From assembly GCA_014240385.1 (NCBI GenBank), contig JAAZXA010000068.1, positions 29,090 through 93,089 on the forward strand: a stretch of 64,000 bases of DNA, given 5' to 3'. Positions within the stretch are counted from its first letter, which is position 1. Each line of letters starts with the position of its first letter. Shown here in pieces: positions 1,105-59,156 of the stretch. The notes below the pieces were generated by a model. It saw only the letters and a program-made list of their open reading frames with translations. It was not told the origin of the DNA and made no database searches. The translations under genes were made by a program, and so were the position numbers. The DNA is from Methanobacteriota archaeon (GTDB lineage Archaea; Thermoplasmatota; Poseidoniia; Poseidoniales; Poseidoniaceae).

Positions 1105-1231
1105 GAGCGGTTTGTTGATAGACCGGCTACCTTTGTTGAAGGTTGCCGGATATAATGTCACCTCCAAGTGAAGGGGGGCAGGGGGATTTCCGGTGAGGCT
1201 TGGGTGGCCTCCCTCTACCCCCTGTCTCCAC

Positions 1232-1429
1232 TTATTCTTCATAGCGTTCTTCATAATCATGAATCTTCCAAGAGCCAACGGTATTTCCGTTGATATCTTT
1301 GATTCTTCCTTCCCCGTGTCCGTTGGCAATCATATCGCAGATGTCTGCGAAAATGCGCCTTGTCTCTGGTAAAGGGGTTTCATTGAACGCTGCGTTGTCT
1401 ATGTTGTATTCGATTTCAATTTTCGACAT
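1232..1429 (-). CDS. hypothetical protein (65 aa)
   Basis: track ORF; PM-ATG at 1429. Confidence 0.7.
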   Translation of the reverse strand: MSKIEIEYNIDNAAFNETPLPETRRIFADICDMIANGHGEGRIKDINGNTVGSWKIHDYEERYEE

Positions 1430-4136: not shown

Positions 4137-4586
4137 TCACATTTCGAATTTAGTGATGCCATCATCTTCCGATAATCTCACTTTACGGCCAATCATTGTA
4201 GCCTGTTTTCGAAGTGCTTTGATTTTAGCGTGTTGTTCTAGCAGTCCTTCTCCATCTAGCATTGCTATGATTTGGAAGGCTTTTTTGTGCGAACGAATAC
4301 TATCCAGAATATCGTCAATCTTCGACAATAGTTCCCACATCTCGGGGCTTATCGTCATCTTGACTGCAGTTCTGTAATCGTCTGCACAGAATCCCTTTCC
4401 ATTAGTTTCTCTTCCTTTGACGAAGTGTCCGTGGCCGATGTGACCGGGGACTGGGAGTTTCGCAAAAATATTCTCTCTAAGGGTTGAGTCGTTTCTGCAT
4501 ATACAGAGGGGATTAGCCCTCATTCTCTCTCTCCCGCCAATACTCCAAGAAGCGGGGGAGAACTGTAGTGTAAATTCAGTTTTCAT
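4137..4586 (-). CDS. hypothetical protein (149 aa)
   Basis: track ORF; PM-ATG at 4586. Confidence 0.75.
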   Translation of the reverse strand: MKTEFTLQFSPASWSIGGRERMRANPLCICRNDSTLRENIFAKLPVPGHIGHGHFVKGRETNGKGFCADDYRTAVKMTISPEMWELLSKIDDILDSIRSHKKAFQIIAMLDGEGLLEQHAKIKALRKQATMIGRKVRLSEDDGITKFEM

Positions 4587-9384: not shown

Positions 9385-9951
9385 CTATTGTTCAATCCAA
9401 TGCCCATCAGAATCGTATTCCTTTGGGTCAATGGTTGTCTTTTCATAGGCTTTGTGTGGGTTGATGTACCAGAATGATTCTTTGTTGATGTAAATCACGG
9501 CTTGTTCTAGTTGCCTTCCTTTCTCAGAGTTTCCTCGTAAGATTTCTTCCGGCCTCCAGGTATGTCCATGTTCATCAACCATAGAATCATCACCATGTTT
9601 CGAACGGTGGTCTGAAAGTAAATGGTAGCTTAGGTTCACGGCAAATTGCATTTCACTATGCCAACCTGCAGCGTTTGTGCTCCATCCTGCTTCTTTCATT
9701 CTTTCAATCAATTCGATGGTGACGAATTCTGGTAGTTTCTGTCCTTCACCAAAAGTTGGTGATTCCTTATCGTAATCTTTGTTGAAGTTAGGCCAAACAA
9801 TCTTGAGTCTGTTCAAAAACACAAGAGGGTCTCGGCAGTCCCCGCAACCTGTTACTGCACTGACGCTTCCAAGAGTATATCCGCAAGCGAATCCAATTTC
9901 TTCGTCAGTAAAGTTTTCTTTATCCATATAGTATCCTACTAGTAGTGGCAT
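9385..9951 (-). CDS. hypothetical protein (188 aa)
   Basis: track ORF; PM-ATG at 9951. Confidence 0.75.
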   Translation of the reverse strand: MPLLVGYYMDKENFTDEEIGFACGYTLGSVSAVTGCGDCRDPLVFLNRLKIVWPNFNKDYDKESPTFGEGQKLPEFVTIELIERMKEAGWSTNAAGWHSEMQFAVNLSYHLLSDHRSKHGDDSMVDEHGHTWRPEEILRGNSEKGRQLEQAVIYINKESFWYINPHKAYEKTTIDPKEYDSDGHWIEQ

Positions 9952-10814: not shown

Positions 10815-11144
10815 TCATTCCGCATTCCAAAGATGGGGGTTTCCTGAACGAATTATCGTCAGTATTTCCCACCTTTGGAATGTTATGTCGTTAATTGTTA
10901 GTTGTTCGGGTATCTTCTTCATGTCTGGCCTGTATGTAGGAACAGTTCCATTTTCCAACCTTGTCCGAGTCATTAGATCTCCAAAGTGTTCTTCTGCGAA
11001 ATTCTTCCTAATCGCACCGTTCCTTGCGGAACGATAGTATAGGGTTTCGTCTGAATCTCGCATTTTTCCCATTAGAGTTGTCCAATATTCAGGATCGTTC
11101 CAGACTTCAATGTCCATTCCGAGTTCTCTGTTAATTAGAGTCAT
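10815..11144 (-). CDS. hypothetical protein (109 aa)
   Basis: track ORF; PM-ATG at 11144. Confidence 0.75.
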   Translation of the reverse strand: MTLINRELGMDIEVWNDPEYWTTLMGKMRDSDETLYYRSARNGAIRKNFAEEHFGDLMTRTRLENGTVPTYRPDMKKIPEQLTINDITFQRWEILTIIRSGNPHLWNAE

Positions 11145-11389
11145 GAGCGGTTAGGCCATTTACATCTCTTCCTTCTGTCCATGTTTCTCTGAACTCAAAC
11201 TCCTACCATCAGGTCGTCCGAACTGCGGATTTGCTCCTGTCTCGTTCAATGTAGGTTCTCAAGCAAAGGCCATTTTGGACTAGGTAATTATGTTCCATTG
11301 GCCGTCCCCCGGCTACTTGTTGACTTTGCGTTGGTGCCGTCCAAGGATAGGACACCTTTTGCTTATCGTCGTATTGAGCCGTGAGCGGT
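11145..11389 (-). ncRNA. non-coding island B
   Basis: opens with ACCGCTCACGG (11381-11389), conserved hairpin at 11333-11356, closes with PM-ATG at 11144; only shadow ORFs. Confidence 0.4.
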
Positions 11390-15919: not shown

Positions 15920-17191
15920 TCATTCCAGTATTTTCTGCATCTCCTTTTCGAGCAAAGCATCATTTCTTCGTGCTATGTGCTCTTTCATGGAGTATCGCAG
16001 ACCGTCATACTTGAGGCTGTTCAGCGTAGCCTTGCCAAGATTGGCAACAGGCTTACGCTCATACCAGTCTTTTCGCTTCATCATCTCGCCTGTAACGGGA
16101 TGAGGAACGATTTCATTTCCTTCTGGGCTTTCAGCGAGTTTCAACCATTGGAAGGGCATCAATTTCCATGCGCCTATCTTCTCAGTATATGGCTTGAATT
16201 CTTTCTTGTAGCCCGAAAGTCCTGATTTCTTATCGGGTTCTGGTGTCATCTTGTAAACATGAGTACAGTTAGGATCTTCGCACCATCCACTAGCCATAGG
16301 AGTCCTATGGTAGCCTCGGTTGCATCTACCTCCCTTGTTGAGAGGCATTCCATCTCTGTGCCATTTCTCATGCTTGTCTTCTGAGTAGAAGCGTTCTTCG
16401 ATTCCTAGAGCTTCTTGCAGCCCTATACCATCAGCGTCAATCAAACGGTCAACTTCCCATTCTTTGCAGAATGGACACCACATGCATGAACTCTTCTGGA
16501 CTGGGGAGCCATCTCCCCTGTAATCCCATCCAAGTATCTGCAACATGGCGAGGCATTCTTTCCTATTCATGTCCAATTCCTGGAGAGGATAGGAGTATTC
16601 ATGCCCTTTGACTTTGTTTTGACCGTGGTTTGCTGTGAATCTGTCAGTTCTTCCACCTTCGTTGGCTTCGATGCCAAGCATCCACCATTTTTCCGATACA
16701 GTATGGTCTCCAAAGGTTTCTTCTGCCCATTTCTGTTGGACATTTCCCTTGAATCTCATGCTGCAGGTATGTTGTTGTCCTCCAATTACTGGAAGCATTC
16801 CTCCATCCATCAACCATTCATAGATCTTGTAGACCTTTTCTCCCTTGGTGTAATCATCCTTCTCTGATTTGGGCAAACTTCTCCATTCTTCATAGCGGAG
16901 TTCTTCGCCTGTATCATTGTGATGATAAACGGGGATTGTGTGTCTAACGGTAACTACTGGCAAGCCTACTTCTGCGCATCGCTTCTCTGCGTATGCAAGG
17001 TTTTCGTAGGTTTCAGGCCATTCGCTACCGGGATCCGAGAATACGGCTGCAACGAATGGAGGAAACTTTTCGTCTAGTTCTTGTCGAGTTATCCCCAACG
17101 CTTCGGCTGAGGTGTCTCTGTCTAAGTGCATGGCTAGAAGGGCTGTTGAATCAACCCCTACGCCAAATGATAACAAGTCTATTCGTTTCAT
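15920..17191 (-). CDS. PAPS reductase-like protein with degenerate PP-loop (423 aa)
   Basis: track ORF trimmed to PM-ATG at 17191; LLSFGVGVDSTALL in place of SGGKDS; SSCMWCPFC Cys cluster as in phage PAPS-reductase/DndC-like proteins. Confidence 0.55.
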   Translation of the reverse strand: MKRIDLLSFGVGVDSTALLAMHLDRDTSAEALGITRQELDEKFPPFVAAVFSDPGSEWPETYENLAYAEKRCAEVGLPVVTVRHTIPVYHHNDTGEELRYEEWRSLPKSEKDDYTKGEKVYKIYEWLMDGGMLPVIGGQQHTCSMRFKGNVQQKWAEETFGDHTVSEKWWMLGIEANEGGRTDRFTANHGQNKVKGHEYSYPLQELDMNRKECLAMLQILGWDYRGDGSPVQKSSCMWCPFCKEWEVDRLIDADGIGLQEALGIEERFYSEDKHEKWHRDGMPLNKGGRCNRGYHRTPMASGWCEDPNCTHVYKMTPEPDKKSGLSGYKKEFKPYTEKIGAWKLMPFQWLKLAESPEGNEIVPHPVTGEMMKRKDWYERKPVANLGKATLNSLKYDGLRYSMKEHIARRNDALLEKEMQKILE

Positions 17192-32735: not shown

Positions 32736-33203
32736 TTATGCCATTATCTCGCTTGGGTCGTCTTCCCATCGGTTACTCATCGCAATGATTCCTTCAAGAG
32801 GAACGCCATGGACATTTGACTCGAATAAGAATTGGTCTGTAATGTCGTGGCCTTGTTTCTTCCTGTATTGGTTCGTGTTGACGATTTTCACTCGATAGTC
32901 AAAGATCTTAGCGAGTTTAGCGTGATTTTCATATTCCCATCTTTGAGTGTTGGTGTTGTCTACAACGATGTATTCGTCGCCAGAGGCTAGAGCATCGATG
33001 AAGGAGCCCCAACATGATTGATGGGCCATAGGGATTTGCCAGGGGACAAAGTTGTAATTGCCGTCCTTGTCCTCGAAATAGAAATCTGCAGAATGCCAAC
33101 TGGTAGTTGCATTTGCTAGGTCTGTTTTCAAGCGCAAGTAGTGTTTAGCGTAGTAACTTTTGCCGGTTCCGGGTTTTCCCCTAAGAATTAATACTTCTTT
33201 CAT
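32736..33203 (-). CDS. P-loop kinase (AAA_33 / polynucleotide-kinase-like)
   Basis: PM-ATG; Walker A LRGKPGTGKSYYA; IVVDNTNTQRWEY motif typical of PNK-type kinases. Confidence 0.6.
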   Translation of the reverse strand: MKEVLILRGKPGTGKSYYAKHYLRLKTDLANATTSWHSADFYFEDKDGNYNFVPWQIPMAHQSCWGSFIDALASGDEYIVVDNTNTQRWEYENHAKLAKIFDYRVKIVNTNQYRKKQGHDITDQFLFESNVHGVPLEGIIAMSNRWEDDPSEIMA

Positions 33204-37695: not shown

Positions 37696-37782
37696 CATGT
37701 GGGGTTATCGTTATGTCCATCTCGATTCATGGCTCCATTGCCGACCTCTAATAGGCGGAGCGGGATTTTTTTCGGTGTGTTG
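37696..37782 (-). repeat. 87-nt promoter/leader-like repeat, copy A
   Basis: near-identical to 40303-40390 (2 substitutions plus a 1-nt indel); ends in ACCCCACATG; contains an A7 run and CCTATTAGAGG. Confidence 0.85.
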
Positions 37783-39840: not shown

Positions 39841-40305
39841 TCATTGAGCGACCTGCCGCTTTCGTCTTGCTAAAGGAACTGGTGTTCTTTTGGGCTTGAC
39901 GGTTTTAGCGGCAGGTTGTACTCGGCTTCTGGACGCCTGATTAAACAGGTTAGTCGCAGATGATGTTCTTGCCTTATTCTTCTGCCCCTTGAACTGGGAT
40001 TTCTTGGCATGTGGCTTTGACGCCTTTGCCTTGACAGTTTTCATGTGCTTTCTCCAAGCCTTGATGTGATTATCATAGATTGGATCTGCGAAAACTGCTT
40101 CTGGCACATACCGAGAGACCATACTTCCGATTCGATTCCAGCCACCAAAACTCAATGAATCATTCATTGCGTTTTTGATTTTGGAAACATAGGATGCTGG
40201 AGCATTCTTATTCAGTTTGCTCCAGTGTTCGGAACCCATCTTGGTAACCCAAGTTGGGATGTAGAGTTCTTGCGGGGTTTCGATGTTCTTATTTTGCATA
40301 TTCAT
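39841..40305 (-). CDS. hypothetical protein with Lys/Arg-rich C-terminal tail (154 aa)
   Basis: track ORF; start follows the 88-nt repeat copy B. Confidence 0.7.
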   Translation of the reverse strand: MNMQNKNIETPQELYIPTWVTKMGSEHWSKLNKNAPASYVSKIKNAMNDSLSFGGWNRIGSMVSRYVPEAVFADPIYDNHIKAWRKHMKTVKAKASKPHAKKSQFKGQKNKARTSSATNLFNQASRSRVQPAAKTVKPKRTPVPLARRKRQVAQ

Positions 40306-40390
40306 GGGGGGTTATCGTTATGTCCATCTCGAATCATGGCTCCATTGCCGACCTCTAATAGGCGGAGCGGGATTTTTTTCGGTAGTGTTG
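40303..40390 (-). repeat. 87/88-nt promoter/leader-like repeat, copy B
   Basis: near-identical to 37696-37782; ends at the start codon of 39841..40305. Confidence 0.85.
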
Positions 40391-40800: not shown

Positions 40801-40841
40801 CTTCCTCATTAGCATAGGTCATAGGGGCCGTAGGCCCTGAC
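40801..40841 (-). repeat. 41-nt promoter-like module, copy 1
   Basis: CTTCCTCATTAGCATAGGTCATAGGGGCCGTAGGCCCTGAC; contains the GGGCC-GTA-GGCCC hairpin and, in minus sense, CCCTATGACC. Confidence 0.8.
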
Positions 40842-41034
40842 CGTTTTAGTCATGTTTTGGTGCTAAGTTTTATTCTACCTCTCGATAGAAACGGCGCAAA
40901 GCAACCTTTGGACTCCTCCCGTAAAGGGTGGTGTGTGTGGTGTTACGGGTGTCCATGGGTCTCTCTCGCCAATAAAGCGAGTTGTAGGCGTACTCCAACG
41001 CCTCGTTGTTCGTCAATGATTTGACTACACCTCA

Positions 41035-41168
41035 TGGTGGACCGTGCTGGATTCGAACCAGCGGCCTCCTAAGACAGACAACTTCGACTCCTTCCGTCCT
41101 GCCCGGGACAGTTCGGTTTTTGTCTTATTCTGTTTCTTAGGCGCTCTTCCTGACTGAGCTAACGGCCC
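41035..41168 (-). tRNA. tRNA-like gene with a 57-nt insertion in the anticodon loop and encoded CCA; identity unresolved
   Basis: reverse complement folds as GGGCCGT/TA/GCTC-AGTCAGGAA-GAGC/G/CCTAA-[64 nt]-TTAGG/AGGCC/GCTGG-TTCGAAT-CCAGC/ACGGTCC/A/CCA. Confidence 0.75.
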
Positions 41169-41193
41169 GTAACGGTGTTTTGAGGAAGTATTT

Positions 41194-41234
41194 CTTCCTC
41201 ATTGGTATAGGTCATAGGGGCCGTAGGCCCTGAC
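41194..41234 (-). repeat. 41-nt promoter-like module, copy 2 (upstream of the tRNA)
   Basis: CTTCCTCATTGGTATAGGTCATAGGGGCCGTAGGCCCTGAC; 3 mismatches to copy 1; followed in minus sense by hairpin GAGGAAG-AAATA-CTTCCTC. Confidence 0.8.
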
Positions 41235-41376
41235 CCATTTGTGTGTGGTTTTTGTGTGTTTGTGAGCGGTTTAGCCTGATTTCCAATCCATACTGACGAA
41301 CTTCCTCGTAAACCAATTCTGGCCTTTCGGCACTCTCGGTTTGCGTAAGAGAGCGAGATCGTTCCCCGTGAGGGGC

Positions 41377-41646: not shown

Positions 41647-42044
41647 TTATCATACAAGCCCTGAACTACCTCATGTCCGTGGGGCTAATCCACATTGTCC
41701 TTTCGGAGCGTAGAATCACCTAAGCAGCAACCAGCCGCTTTTGCTTCGTAACATATCGGACCAACTGACTAATGCCAGTAGTGATTAAGTCACCAACGAG
41801 GTCTTTTCGTCAATGTTACGGTTTTCGGTGGACTACATGGGAAAGGAGCGATGATAGTCGCTACTTTCTCTCAATGTATATCCGTTAGCCGAGAAGAGGC
41901 ACCAAAAGGTGCGGGTATCTCTATTTCTCGACCCGGTGTCTCGGTGAAGTCCTCTTTCGAGGGATCCTCCGCCTTATCCCCTATCTCTAGGGTTTAGCAG
42001 ATACTTCGTGTAGGCCCTTGAGCCAACCGAGAGAGGGCATTCCT

Positions 42045-42084
42045 GTCCTCATTAGATGAGGTCATAGGAGCCCTAGGCCTTGCC
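42045..42084 (-). repeat. 41-nt promoter-like module, degenerate copy 3
   Basis: GTCCTCATTAGATGAGGTCATAGGAGCCCTAGGCCTTGCC; faces the ORF-free 41650-42040 stretch. Confidence 0.6.
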
Positions 42085-42097
42085 GTAGCAAGGTGGT

Positions 42098-42563
42098 GTG
42101 TGGTATAATTTCTTCGTGGTTTTAGGCCACAGGAGGTATATGAATAGGCCCTTTTACTCTCTTTCCTTTGGATCTAGAGGCCTCAAGCTGCTACTCTTGG
42201 CCTCTTTCTCTAGAAAGAGTGTATTTTGGGTATTTCTTCATGTTCTCCACTGTATTGTGCCACAGGGGGTATATGAATAGGCCACTTGCAGTCAATTTCA
42301 AGATCGCTGAAAGGGCATGATTAGCTTCTCATGCCTTCGCTTTCAATTATTGCTTCAATATGGGTATTTCTTCATGTTCTCCACTGTATTGTGCCACAGG
42401 GGGTATATGAATAGGCCATATTTCGGTAACATCTCCAGATCTCTCCTTCGAAAGCTACTCCTGGCATGGCCGTAGGCCAAACAGGGTGAAATATGGGTAT
42501 TTCTTCATGTTCTCCACTGTATTGTGCCACAGGTGTTATTTGGCAAGGCCGTTTCCGTTAACC
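42098..42563 (+). promoter_or_regulatory. four tandem promoter-like repeats at about 133-bp phasing; the last drives the TFB-like gene
   Basis: TGGGTATTTCTTCATGTTCTCCACTGTATTGTGCCACAGGGGGTATATGAATAGGCC at 42227 and 42360; degenerate copy at 42098; copy at 42493 ends GGTGTTATTTGGCAAGGCC, 28 nt before ATG 42564. Confidence 0.75.
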
Positions 42564-43694
42564 ATGGCGAGTAATGACGATACGGCCAATCAGATGGGGG
42601 CGACTGCTGATTTTTCGTCAATATCGTCTGTCCTTTGTCCTGCATTCGAACAGCCGCCTGGGTGTGCCGTCTCCCTTGCCAAGCAACAAAACTTTGATTC
42701 TTTGTCAGTCGACTCTATGACTGGGAGGGCGTATTGCGGATCATGCGGCGTGGAATTCGTTGTTGACCGTTATCAGGTTAGTCATGAGCAGAAAAAGAGT
42801 GATGATGGGATAGAAACCTACGGATCTGTTCTCTCCAAGTCTGGGAAGCAACGGAATAGGGAACAATCCTTTGACCGCCTGGGCTATCTTTGTATTAGCA
42901 AGTTGGACTTATCTCAAAGTGTGTTGGCACAAGCTACCCGCTACCTGTACGATATGATGGAAGGTGGAGCCGCTAAAGGAGGTCGGGGTTTTCCCCAACT
43001 CGAAGTGGTTGCGGCTTATGTGGCAGGTAGAATGCATAATCAATCCCTTACTCTCGAACATGTTGTTAATATCCATCGAGATTGGATTACAGAAGAAGGG
43101 GAGTTCAAATCGATAAAGGCGGCATCTATGAAATCAGTTAATCGATTGCTGCAGAATATGACTAGGGAAAACATTCTGCCTTACCCCCGCCCTTCTGCAG
43201 ATGATATCATTGGTTCTAATTCGTGGTGCTTGGCTAATCTAGATGAAGTCATTATTCAGAATGCTAAGGAGTTGTCTAATTGCGGAGTCCAAGGTTCCCC
43301 CGATTCTATTGCTGCAGCATCGGTGATGGTGGCTGCGAAGAATAAGCGTGTTGTGAAACCCGGAGATGACTTATCGCGGCCACGAACACAAATGGCCGGA
43401 GAGGAAGATGGGCAGCGTTTAACGCTCGAAGTGATTGCCAAATTGTTTCCTGGCACTACTGCTAGAACTGTAAGGCGAAGAATGAAAGAGATTAGGGATG
43501 TTTTGGAACTTAGGCTACCTCTAACACGAGAGCAAGTAGAGGTTCTTGAAAATCCTGATCCCCGCAAGGTGCGTGTCCGTAATACTGTTGAGGAAGTATT
43601 CAGTCAATTGGATTCGGAATTGGAAGGAAAGATACCATTGACTTCTAAGGATGTAGCAATTCTACGAAAATTGAAAGATTCAAACAAGAGGTAA
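42564..43694 (+). CDS. TFB/TFIIB-like transcription factor (376 aa)
   Basis: track ORF 42486..43694 trimmed to MASNDD. N-terminal Cys pairs (CPAF..GC, CGSCG). Two cyclin-like repeats: RGFPQLEVVAAYVAGRMHNQSLTLEHV and GSPDSIAAASVMVAA...LTLEVIAKLFPGTTARTVRRRMKEI. Confidence 0.7.
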   Translation: MASNDDTANQMGATADFSSISSVLCPAFEQPPGCAVSLAKQQNFDSLSVDSMTGRAYCGSCGVEFVVDRYQVSHEQKKSDDGIETYGSVLSKSGKQRNREQSFDRLGYLCISKLDLSQSVLAQATRYLYDMMEGGAAKGGRGFPQLEVVAAYVAGRMHNQSLTLEHVVNIHRDWITEEGEFKSIKAASMKSVNRLLQNMTRENILPYPRPSADDIIGSNSWCLANLDEVIIQNAKELSNCGVQGSPDSIAAASVMVAAKNKRVVKPGDDLSRPRTQMAGEEDGQRLTLEVIAKLFPGTTARTVRRRMKEIRDVLELRLPLTREQVEVLENPDPRKVRVRNTVEEVFSQLDSELEGKIPLTSKDVAILRKLKDSNKR

Positions 43695-55297: not shown

Positions 55298-55371
55298 CGG
55301 CCCCACGGGGATTTGAACCCCGGTTACTGGTTCCGCAAACCAGTGTGATATCCAAGCTACACTATGGGGCC
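55298..55371 (-). tRNA. tRNA-Arg (anticodon GCG), no encoded CCA
   Basis: GGCCCCA/TA/GTGT..TCAC/A/CTGGT-TTGCGGA-ACCAG/TAAC/CGGGG-TTCAAAT-CCCCG/TGGGGCC/G. Confidence 0.85.
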
Positions 55372-57563: not shown

Positions 57564-58385
57564 CTACTCTTCCTCAGTCGCTTGATTGTTTTGGAAAGGA
57601 ATGGTTATTTCAGGTTCGGCCACAAGGGTTGGATGTATGCCTTCTACTACCTCTCCATCAACATCCATCATGCCATAGATGTACAAATTCTTTTTCTCGA
57701 GAATGTTCTTGATTGTCTGTCTGTGCCAGACCACCTTTCCCTTCCTTGTTTTGATGGCTTTTGTTGCTAGTTCATTGATTATGTCGGATATTGTGTAGCC
57801 TTGAGTTTCCATATTGAAGATTATGTTTACTACGCTTGCTTCTTCTTCGTTTGGTACAAGCAAACCTTTCTTGGATCTCTTTCCTGTATCATCGATTTCA
57901 ATATTCATGTCATACCCATAGGGGGGTGTTCCAAGCCAAATTCCTTTCAACTTTGCACCTGCCATGCCCATTTTGACTCTTTCTTTGATTTCATTTCGCC
58001 TTAGTTCAGCCAATGCTGCGAATACTATGTAGAAGAAGCGGCCTTGAACCGTTGTAGTGTCCATTTGTTCAGAGATACATGCAATATGGCAGTTGTTTGT
58101 ATCAATTGTGTTTACAAATTCAATTGCGTTCATGGTGTTGCGATGAAACCGGTCTAGTTTGTAACCAACTACTGCGTCCCATTCTTCGCCCATGGTTTCC
58201 ATCATCGCACCATATCCAGGCCTGTTGTCTGTGAATCCACCTGATCCTGTATCTGAGTAGCTTCGAATGTAAGTCCAACCTTGCATTTCGATGTAGTTCT
58301 GGCAAAGCCTCAACTGTTCCTCTAGGCTGTGGCCTTTTGCTTCTTGCTTCTCGGTTGAAACTCTTGTGTAGATTATTGCTCGCAT
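57564..58385 (-). CDS. serine recombinase (resolvase/invertase catalytic domain plus C-terminal extension)
   Basis: MRAIIYTRVSTEKQ...GHSLEEQ...YSDTGSGG...RPGY; canonical N-terminal Ser-recombinase motifs. Confidence 0.85.
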   Translation of the reverse strand: MRAIIYTRVSTEKQEAKGHSLEEQLRLCQNYIEMQGWTYIRSYSDTGSGGFTDNRPGYGAMMETMGEEWDAVVGYKLDRFHRNTMNAIEFVNTIDTNNCHIACISEQMDTTTVQGRFFYIVFAALAELRRNEIKERVKMGMAGAKLKGIWLGTPPYGYDMNIEIDDTGKRSKKGLLVPNEEEASVVNIIFNMETQGYTISDIINELATKAIKTRKGKVVWHRQTIKNILEKKNLYIYGMMDVDGEVVEGIHPTLVAEPEITIPFQNNQATEEE

Positions 58386-59082: not shown

Positions 59083-59156
59083 CGGGTCATGCAGGGTTCG
59101 AACCTGCGGCCTACTGGTTAAGAGCCAGTCGCTCTACCTGACTAAGCTAATGACCC
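59083..59156 (-). tRNA. tRNA-Lys (anticodon CUU)
   Basis: GGGTCAT/TA/GCTT-AGTCAGGTA-GAGC/G/ACTGG-CTCTTAA-CCAGT/AGGCC/GCAGG-TTCGAAC-CCTGC/ATGACCC/G. Confidence 0.9.

Follow-up and report, generated by a model that had tools for sequence, protein, structure and literature searches.

A tRNA-shaped gene with a 64-nt rod in place of its anticodon loop, and its possible place in a two-part, non-decoding viral RNA

Is a tRNA-shaped gene whose anticodon loop has been replaced by 64 nt an intron-bearing tRNA, or is it an RNA of some other kind? The question is raised by a gene at 41038-41168 on the minus strand of a 64,000-nt stretch (hereafter ‘the window’) of contig JAAZXA010000068.1, assembly GCA_014240385.1, which is filed as a Methanobacteriota archaeon. 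The original prediction, made from the letters alone, described a tRNA-like gene with an encoded CCA and a 57-nt insertion of unusual splice geometry, and listed a non-canonical intron, a regulatory pre-tRNA and a tRNA-derived decoy as possible explanations. Related marine viral contigs hold further copies of the gene with the same architecture, and from that list the comparative data favour a tRNA-derived non-decoder, the non-canonical intron being less favoured. We propose, with moderate confidence, that the gene specifies a tRNA-derived RNA that does not decode, that the rod formed by the insert is an integral and selected arm, and that this RNA forms one unit (the ‘cassette’) with a four-way-junction RNA, the ‘block’, immediately downstream. 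The cassette would represent an apparently small and undescribed family of two-part RNAs in large marine viruses.

In a scan of the whole window, the Rfam tRNA model RF00005 matched 41038-41168(-) at 48.9 bits (gathering score 29, E=2e-07), with 71/71 model positions aligned and 64 nt extra in the anticodon loop, so that the covariance score places the gene in this family and the earlier description of its stems, the G:U pair in its acceptor and the 64-nt loop replacement is upheld. As delimited by the RF00005 alignment and the intron mode of ARAGORN, the 5' half of the tRNA body (41137..41168, minus strand) consists of the acceptor strand GGGCCGU, the D-arm GCUC-AGUCAGGAA-GAGC, G26 and CCUAA; the 3' half (41038..41072, minus strand) consists of UUAGG, the variable loop AGGCC, the T-arm GCUGG-UUCGAAU-CCAGC, ACGGUCC and A73. 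The acceptor stem has 7 bp including G3:U70, and A73 is followed, in the minus-strand reading, by CCA at 41035-41037. The anticodon-stem strands CCUAA and UUAGG are separated not by a 7-nt loop but by the 64 nt of 41073..41136(-), which begin GAAACAGA, end CUGUC and fold as a rod. The minimum free energy (MFE) fold of the whole is a cloverleaf whose anticodon stem runs on into a long irregular hairpin (z=-2.8). Beyond the cloverleaf it pairs CCUAAGA with UCUUAGG and continues through an AA bulge, CAGA/UCUG and more helices, an arrangement equivalent to the flank pairing noted earlier; TAAGA is indeed present twice, and the alternative pairing UAAGAC/GUCUUA is possible. The body is 75% identical to the tRNA-Lys(CUU) of the window and shares with it the D-loop AGUCAGG and the variable loop AGGCC, which bears out the likeness first remarked upon.

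The canonical substrate of the archaeal splicing endonuclease EndA is the hBHBh' form of the bulge-helix-bulge (BHB), a 4-bp helix between two 3-nt bulges that contain the splice sites; the central helix also takes in the first two bases of the anticodon (PMC4090602). It follows from this definition that each bulge lies 3' of its strand of the central helix. Endonucleases of the alpha4 and alpha2 types demand the strict motif, those of the alpha2-beta2 type also take the hBH and HBh' forms, and lenient EndAs tolerate non-canonical motifs and positions (PMC4090602). The actual geometry in the window is a 7-bp stem, a 2-nt AA bulge in the 5' strand, a 4-bp helix and no bulge in the 3' strand; the AA bulge sits 5' of the 4-bp helix, which is the wrong handedness for a BHB. 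Exhaustive scans, of unvalidated sensitivity (the controls L001 and L002 are not clean canonical cases), found no strict BHB on the anticodon stem and no relaxed hBH or HBh' of the right hand that would leave a 7-nt loop. The incidental matches of the relaxed scan cut the anticodon stem or the T-arm, or remove interior pieces, and none is common between members. A BHB formed in trans with the block was also considered and rejected, there being no conserved complementarity. The geometry is thus not that of a textbook BHB, as had been suspected.

Excision likewise fails to give the loop of a functional decoder, which has 7 nt, U33 and a purine at position 37. A canonical intron at 37/38 would leave, as first calculated, the loop GAAACAC with A33, and ARAGORN with the intron forced to this position calls both the window gene and L005 (one of the related loci, which are designated here by L numbers) Cys(ACA), again with A33. 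Eight junctions can leave a 7-nt loop, and U33 arises only in the window's GUCUGUC, the sole U33-restoring product named by the original prediction and exactly the solution returned by ARAGORN in intron mode (tRNA-Gln(CUG), score 111, 57-nt intron after G32). This loop has U37 and a G32:C38 pair. In its default mode ARAGORN reports only tRNA-Arg(GCG) and tRNA-Lys(CUU) in the window and misses the tRNA-shaped gene. A Gln(CUG) product is not supported by comparison: L005, L256 and L262 yield no U33 product at any of the eight possible junctions, and the free ARAGORN solutions are, by member, Gln, Ala, Asn or Ile, with differing intron positions and mismatched stems. Because the relatives cannot form a U33 loop, the window's Gln reading is probably a coincidence; the chance of U33 at a single position is ~1 in 4, and CAG is the minor Gln codon (29%). 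The acceptor ends also vary, from G1-C72 with G3:U70 or with U3-A70 to A1-U72 and G1.U72, and this lack of a conserved acceptor identity speaks against a shared aminoacylation identity. G3:U70, the alanine identity element and a tmRNA-like trait, was rejected as a family feature, since it is found only in the window copy.

What the relatives do preserve is the architecture, which is kept through compensatory changes among the five distinct sequences compared, well beyond what chance would give. The window gene has a Lys-like body with the acceptor GGGCCGU/ACGGUCC and the anticodon stem CCUAA/UUAGG. In L005, from Tara Oceans (~1201-1331(-)), these helices are GCUUGGA/UCCGAGC and AUCUA/UAGGU, and the 64-nt insert starts with GAAACAGA and ends with CUGGC; L131 and L132, at the same position and with a 64-nt insert, are near-identical to L005. 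L256 (9773-9901(+); L261 is a copy) has ACGCAGA/UCUGCGU, AGAAA/UUUGU and a 62-nt insert, and L262/L264, the latter at 9705-9835 of a 127.6-kb uncultivated viral genome (UViG), has GCGCAAA/UUUGCGU, UCAAA/UUUGA and a 64-nt insert. Changes on both sides of a pair are found at 5/7 positions of the acceptor, 3/4 of the D-stem and 2/5 of the T-stem, and the anticodon stem occurs as four different sequences. Judged by these substitutions, the tRNA body is under structural selection. The L005-type relative went undetected by RF00005 even at E<=1.

The rod is conserved in the same manner. From its base, the window rod has a closing G-C pair, the AA bulge, (A)CAGA/UCUG(U), GAC/GUC, CCG/CGG, an AA/GA internal loop and CUGUC/GGCAG; the arm folds at -23.2 kcal/mol with z=-3.3 against shuffled inserts. 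Insert length hardly varies across the four types (64, 64, 62 and 64 nt), and every arm (window, L005, L256, L262) folds unconstrained into a single long rod. The closing G-C pair is invariant in the rod-bearing genes, in place of C.A in the ordinary tRNA-Met described below. All rods contain an ACAG/CUG(U) helix and share a distal helix, a 2x2 internal loop and an apical helix, the last of which covaries (CUAU/AUAG, CUG/CAG and CCG/CGG, with CUGUC/GGCAG in the window). The apical loop ACUGCAG(G) is kept in three types, and the window apex holds CCCGGG (41102-41107). Every apical loop therefore holds a 6-nt palindrome, since the others have CUGCAG; it may serve loop-loop dimerisation, or be a DNA-level site. 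A kissing contact between the rod apex and the hairpin-2 loop of the block was tried and dropped: the 5 bp available in L005 are not kept in the others. The L256 and L262 inserts start GC-CCCAUAC, and their positions 3-9 match the L260 tRNA-Met loop CUCAUAA at 5/7 with a 2-nt shift, which may be a relic of the original loop or may be chance.

Known classes of small structured RNA do not account for the insert. Direct reading and Rfam rule out box C/D, H/ACA, K-turn, group I and small-ribozyme assignments, and Rfam at E<=10 over 40850-41300 gives no match besides tRNA. A group I intron needs a core of ~200 nt or more, the insert has 64 nt, and there is no Intron_gpI match. A box C/D small-RNA intron of the haloarchaeal tRNA-Trp/Met type would carry box C (RUGAUGA) and box D (CUGA), and the 64 nt contain neither UGAUGA nor CUGA.

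The block occupies 40953..41037 on the minus strand, an 85-nt four-way junction with the closing helix CCAUG.GG/CC.CAUGG, and the first CCA of this helix is the CCA at 41035-41037. Because the block starts at C74 and folds there, this CCA is the first half of the closing helix. The ‘genomic CCA’ of the original prediction is thus present, but it doubles as the 5' strand of the block's conserved closing helix. The window hairpins are GUCAA-AUCA-UUGAC, GGCGU-UGGAGU-ACGCC and CUCGCU-UUAUU-GGCGAG, and the invariant linkers of the block are GAACAACGA, UACAA and AGAGA. Across the family the closing helix is CCAUGAG/CUCAUGG, hairpin 1 is GUC-GAAA-GAC or GUCAA-AUCA-UUGAC, hairpin 2 is GGCGU-loop-ACGCC and hairpin 3 takes six different paired forms. 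Block length ranges from 73 to 85 nt, and the block is more conserved than the tRNA part. Its unconstrained MFE topology is identical in six sequences; in the six close sequences (L295, considered below, left out) the pairing holds in 99.1% of cells, against 28-56% with slid partners, and two pairs have changed on both sides. A MAFFT alignment sets the rod and the L295 closing helix out of register; the covariation tool was therefore applied only to the block without L295, and the helices were tabulated by script. Counted from the ATG of CCATGAG, the reading frame of the shared nucleotides differs between the window, L005 and L256, with all three frames represented, and coding for protein therefore does not explain the conservation. 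With an nhmmer profile, exactly one block is found per related locus, always directly after a tRNA or a tRNA-like gene.

Selection on the block as an RNA structure is most strongly supported by a distant homologue in L295, a 458.8-kb jumbo-phage contig (IMGVR_UViG_3300023179_000009), in which a two-domain element lies at 11116-11329, ~700 nt downstream of an AAA_33 gene. Here the closing helix is CAUACAC/GUGUAUG, with 5/7 pairs changed on both sides, and is thus rewritten yet still complementary; hairpin 1 is now GGC/GCC, and the linkers and the hairpin-2 stem are unchanged. Judged from this helix, the CCA is not intrinsic to the block. The block begins 2 nt after domain 1, a 137-nt tRNA-shaped RNA that combines an acceptor-like helix and a T-arm-like hairpin with a long, branched arm where the anticodon would be. 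In view of the predicted fold of L295, the cassette's normal state is likely to be a tRNA-shaped, non-decoding domain that bears a long arm.

A second informative locus is L260, collinear with the window, where the products of neighbouring genes reach 92% amino-acid identity. The syntenic position is occupied in L260 by a tRNA-Met(CAU) without an intron, which has A1-U72 and the loop CUCAUAA (ARAGORN score 122) and is followed by the same block. The body of this tRNA-Met is of the L005/L256/L262 type (62-72% identity), and the window body is Lys-like, so that the rod insert and block are joined to two tRNA body lineages. Since a tRNA-Met and block are syntenic in L260 and the bodies differ, the ancestral unit appears to be a tRNA with a block, in which the tRNA slot is exchangeable. 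The cassette occurs either at the window/L260 locus or directly upstream of an AAA_33 kinase gene (L005, L131, L132, L256, L261, L264). L005 is collinear with 39-44 kb of the window, and has its cassette at a different site and no tRNA at the syntenic place; a comparison of L256 with L260 places the cassette between duplicated copies of a gene-start motif. From these positions, the cassette is to be regarded as one that moves.

Exon-anchored DNA patterns had no match in IMG/VR or the JGI metagenomes, and a D-arm/T-loop pattern gave only the unrelated intron tRNAs L001 and L002. A loose GAAACAGA...GGTTCGANTCC pattern gave many chance, tRNA and tmRNA matches in IMG/VR and the GTDB genomes, of which a cloverleaf filter left only family members; no cellular-genome copy of the cassette was among the matches listed. 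Two candidates were set aside, L133 as probably the 3' end of a bacterial transfer-messenger RNA (tmRNA) and L010 as sharing only the hairpin-2 segment of the block. The window sequence has no nucleotide match in the phage database, and the IMG/VR related-locus search gave no relatives of the proteins neighbouring the gene in the window.

A genuine intron tRNA would have its 57 nt cut out at 32/33 by a lenient EndA (e.g. alpha2-beta2 or epsilon2, in an archaeal host) and its exons joined by a ligase, giving a product of ~77 nt with CCUAAG joined to UCUGUCUUAGG that reads CAG and is Gln-like, or Ala through G3:U70. This we consider unlikely. The exons are indeed those of a canonical tRNA, ARAGORN finds the Gln(CUG) solution at a score of 111, archaeal introns often lengthen the anticodon stem into a rod and lenient EndAs exist (PMC4090602), and the positional orthologue in L260 looks like a working, intron-less tRNA. 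However, the junction that is needed has no BHB, hBH or HBh', its product has U37 and a Watson-Crick G32:C38 pair and would read a minor codon, relatives with the same type of insert form no U33 loop, and the apical loop and insert length are conserved, unlike those of ordinary introns. The window also encodes no EndA or RtcB, and an archaeal host is not established. Another explanation, which we rate as improbable, is that the tRNA gene is decaying, its anticodon loop broken by a palindromic insert resembling a miniature inverted-repeat transposable element or derived from recombination, with the remainder neutral or kept as a processing handle for the block. The insert is an imperfect palindrome around a 6-bp perfect one, the cassette is present at at least two genomic sites flanked by repeats or duplicated gene-start motifs, the block is better conserved than the tRNA part, L131 and L256 have anticodon-stem mismatches and L262 has no G19. 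A merely decaying gene would not, however, be expected to keep rod length, closing pair and apical loop across lineages through compensatory helix changes; the G.U pairs in its stems point to RNA-level selection on this strand, two unrelated tRNA bodies have the insertion at an identical position, and the distant L295 also bears a long arm there. It is very improbable that the palindrome and repeats form a DNA-level element, either an origin or a recombinase site at the 40.3-42.6 kb strand switch, with the tRNA as an attachment-site (att)-like remnant. The gene does lie near the strand switch and the turn in GC skew, among hairpin, 133-nt tandem and 81-nt repeats, and a serine recombinase is encoded beside the tRNA-Lys. 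Yet the gene is a full cloverleaf and not a 3' att fragment, the cassettes of L005, L256 and L264 are elsewhere, by the kinase and away from such repeats, and the helices swap sequence, stay complementary and use G.U pairs, as a protein-binding DNA palindrome would not.

The proposed two-part, non-decoding RNA has points against it as well. One excision in the window copy does give U33-CUG, and the BHB scan lacks validation on clean natural positive controls. The anticodon stems of L131 and L256 contain mismatches (A.A and G.G, respectively). Rod stability against shuffled sequence is z = -3.3, -2.1, -1.5 and +0.4, the last being L005, whose rod is no stabler than shuffled sequence, and there are five distinct rod sequences in all, three of them linked by descent. 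That the cassette is expressed and processed, retains its rod and has a function is something that we infer. Its link to a kinase also has its limits: adjacency is partly a matter of ascertainment, several loci having been fetched by a kinase search; the kinase is not adjacent in the window (~8 kb away), L260, L255 or L257; and its likeness to polynucleotide kinase (PNK) or seryl-tRNA(Sec) kinase (PSTK) is weak, below curated cut-offs.

If the two-part, non-decoding RNA is nevertheless what the cassette specifies, its first domain would be the tRNA-shaped module, Lys-like in the window, with a rod of 62-64 nt for an anticodon loop and kept unspliced. The second, from C74, would be the four-way junction, whose closing helix would pair CCA with the downstream CAUGG. 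The unit may be transcribed or processed from the viral gene-start signal. The tRNA-shaped module would provide a stable L-shape and draw host tRNA-end-processing enzymes, of which RNase P would act on the 5' end and tRNase Z or CCA-related enzymes on the boundary with domain 2. Two elements, the rod (whose apical loop is conserved or palindromic) and the four-way junction, would then be the working surfaces, and these may bind protein, possibly the often adjacent PNK/PSTK-like P-loop kinase. Alternatively, they may serve as a tRNA mimic that cannot be cleaved and that counters host nucleases directed at tRNA. A more specific idea is that the cassette and the kinase make up an RNA-based device for counter-defence or RNA repair in which the CCA is sequestered by the junction, for example a tRNA mimic that traps or titrates anticodon nucleases or an RNA that guides the kinase; this is speculative, and we would give it little credence.

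The kinase in question is a small AAA_33 P-loop protein, encoded at 32736-33203(-) in the window, where a DUF6915 protein follows it, and at 653-1114 in L005, and conserved across the lineage. The cassette lies within ~700 nt of it in L005, L131, L132, L256, L261, L264 and L295. Comparison with PDB and NCBIfam gives weak hints of PNK, PSTK and zeta-like proteins.

The remainder of the window fits a viral replicon. It contains ~130 small, tightly packed open reading frames (ORFs), mostly ORFans, with DNA methyltransferases, PAPS-reductase-like proteins, glycosyltransferases, a serine recombinase and some matches to virion proteins among the recognisable products; no EndA, RtcB or CCA-adding enzyme is encoded in the 64 kb. 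Identical proteins occur on short contigs of sample SAMN14422881 and relatives in Tara Oceans and other marine assemblies, from which the replicon is taken to be a large marine virus of ~128 kb. Its source environments are those of SAMN14422881/ERZ23487621, Tara SAMEA2619888 and SRR20403671. The cassette itself is found from ~128-kb marine viruses to the 459-kb jumbo phage. The suggestion that an intron-bearing tRNA points to an archaeal host is not supported: besides the missing EndA and RtcB, the TFIIB match is below the Pfam cut-off, among GenBank viruses one conserved protein has relatives in T4-like phages only (~29% identity), and there is a cassette homologue in a jumbo phage. The ordinary tRNAs resemble both bacteriophage and halovirus tRNAs.

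Several features of the surrounding DNA deserve mention. A degenerate form, CCGUUAC, of the gene-start motif CCGCUCA lies at 41169..41175(-) and abuts tRNA position 1 on the upstream side, and a complete copy is at 41263-41269; in the relatives, CCGCTCA or CGCTCA lies 3-20 nt upstream of the tRNA or tRNA-like genes. Within 158-39077 on the minus strand of the window, ~95 ORFs start with a near-invariant aaCCGCTC-ATG, usually right behind the preceding stop (e.g. 39077, 33209 and 17197), and C[CT]GCTCA occurs 107 times against ~12 expected and a maximum of 22 in 100 shuffles. The motif is present in all relatives (30 copies in 20 kb of L264), does not have Shine-Dalgarno spacing, and may be a processing, re-initiation or promoter-proximal signal. 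A hairpin, GGTCAGGGCCTACGGCCCCTATGACCTAT followed by ..AATGAGGAAGA, lies upstream of the gene at 41207..41235(-), with an identical copy at 40814-40842, so that direct hairpin repeats bracket the cassette; a degenerate copy is at 42043-42090(-), and further copies are in L005 and L260. The divergent intergenic region (42110-42555) holds a 133-nt repeat in three to four tandem copies, which reach the start of a 402-aa TFIIB-like ORF (42486-43694). With the strand switch and the GC-skew turn close by, it has the look of a control region or an origin. Two copies of an 81-nt direct repeat (37696-37776 and 40303-40383; 98% identical) lie just upstream (minus strand) of two different genes and end in a G+C hairpin and T-run on the plus strand. 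The serine recombinase (Resolvase and Recombinase domains; 57564-58385) is encoded ~700 nt from tRNA-Lys(CUU) at 59083-59156. Neither this tRNA nor tRNA-Arg(GCG) at 55298-55371 has an encoded CCA or a 3' block, and both tRNAs recur in the relatives L008, L255 and L264.

The cassette shares features with several known systems without matching any of them. Like archaeal BHB pre-tRNAs, it has canonical tRNA exons, a stem-extending insert in the anticodon arm and an intron-less orthologue in a relative. Unlike them, it has no 3-4-3 BHB, hBH or HBh', and its bulge lies across the 4-bp helix from where a BHB would have it; its loop is wholly replaced with no conserved anticodon, and its insert length and apical loop are conserved. 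It resembles tmRNA, in the window copy only, in G3:U70, A73, a CCA end and a large insertion between tRNA halves, and differs from it in its intact D-arm and anticodon stem and in having no pseudoknots and no tag ORF; tmRNA identity was rejected on these grounds of a full D-arm and a G3:U70 confined to one copy, and because the ARAGORN tmRNA search was negative. The species 1 and 2 RNAs of phage T4 (rnaC and rnaD; NC_000866) are likewise virus-encoded, ~120-140 nt long and located beside tRNA genes. In T4 rnaC, a 139-nt RNA encoded beside tRNA-Arg, long hairpins lie between a canonical T-arm and an acceptor-like terminal helix; unlike the cassette, it has no D-arm, full cloverleaf, 62-64-nt rod or downstream block. 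The T4 RNAs show no sequence or model-level similarity to the cassette and differ in arm layout, and are a conceptual precedent and not homologues; at most, the cassette works in the manner of such RNAs. Two other phage UViGs, L294 (191 kb; 16837-16986(-)) and L300 (197 kb; 4300-4452(-)), each encode an RNA of 150-153 nt in which the acceptor stem and T-arm of a tRNA go with large structured inserts, and which no block follows; these resemble T4 species 1 and look like instances of the same general phenomenon. To our knowledge, T4 species 1 and 2 have had no known function for fifty years.

Two further systems show how a tRNA shape can be put to other uses. In the TMERs (tRNA-miRNA-encoded RNAs) of murine gammaherpesvirus 68, a tRNA-like module is followed by pre-miRNA hairpins, and the tRNA shape is a promoter and a tRNase Z handle and not a decoder. 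The likeness to the cassette is that a viral tRNA-shaped module is directly followed by structured RNA; the differences are the eukaryotic Pol III/miRNA setting, a pair of pre-miRNA hairpins instead of a four-way junction, and an anticodon arm without a rod. In the engineered ‘tRNA scaffold’ of Ponchon and Dardel, a foreign structured RNA replaces the anticodon loop and reportedly gains stability and correct end processing in cells. The topology is the same, but the scaffold is artificial, whereas the cassette occurs in nature, is conserved and has a second RNA domain attached.

Microbial viruses carry many tRNA genes, and the present case bears on how such genes are read. Intron-aware tRNA finders will call genes of this type Gln, Ala, Asn or Ile with introns, and the resulting label of ‘intron-bearing tRNA’ may be wrongly taken as evidence of an archaeal host. 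With its swappable body, selected rod, conserved second domain and recurrent protein neighbour, the cassette provides a comparative handle on viral tRNA-like RNAs, and the question of what these RNAs do thereby becomes testable.

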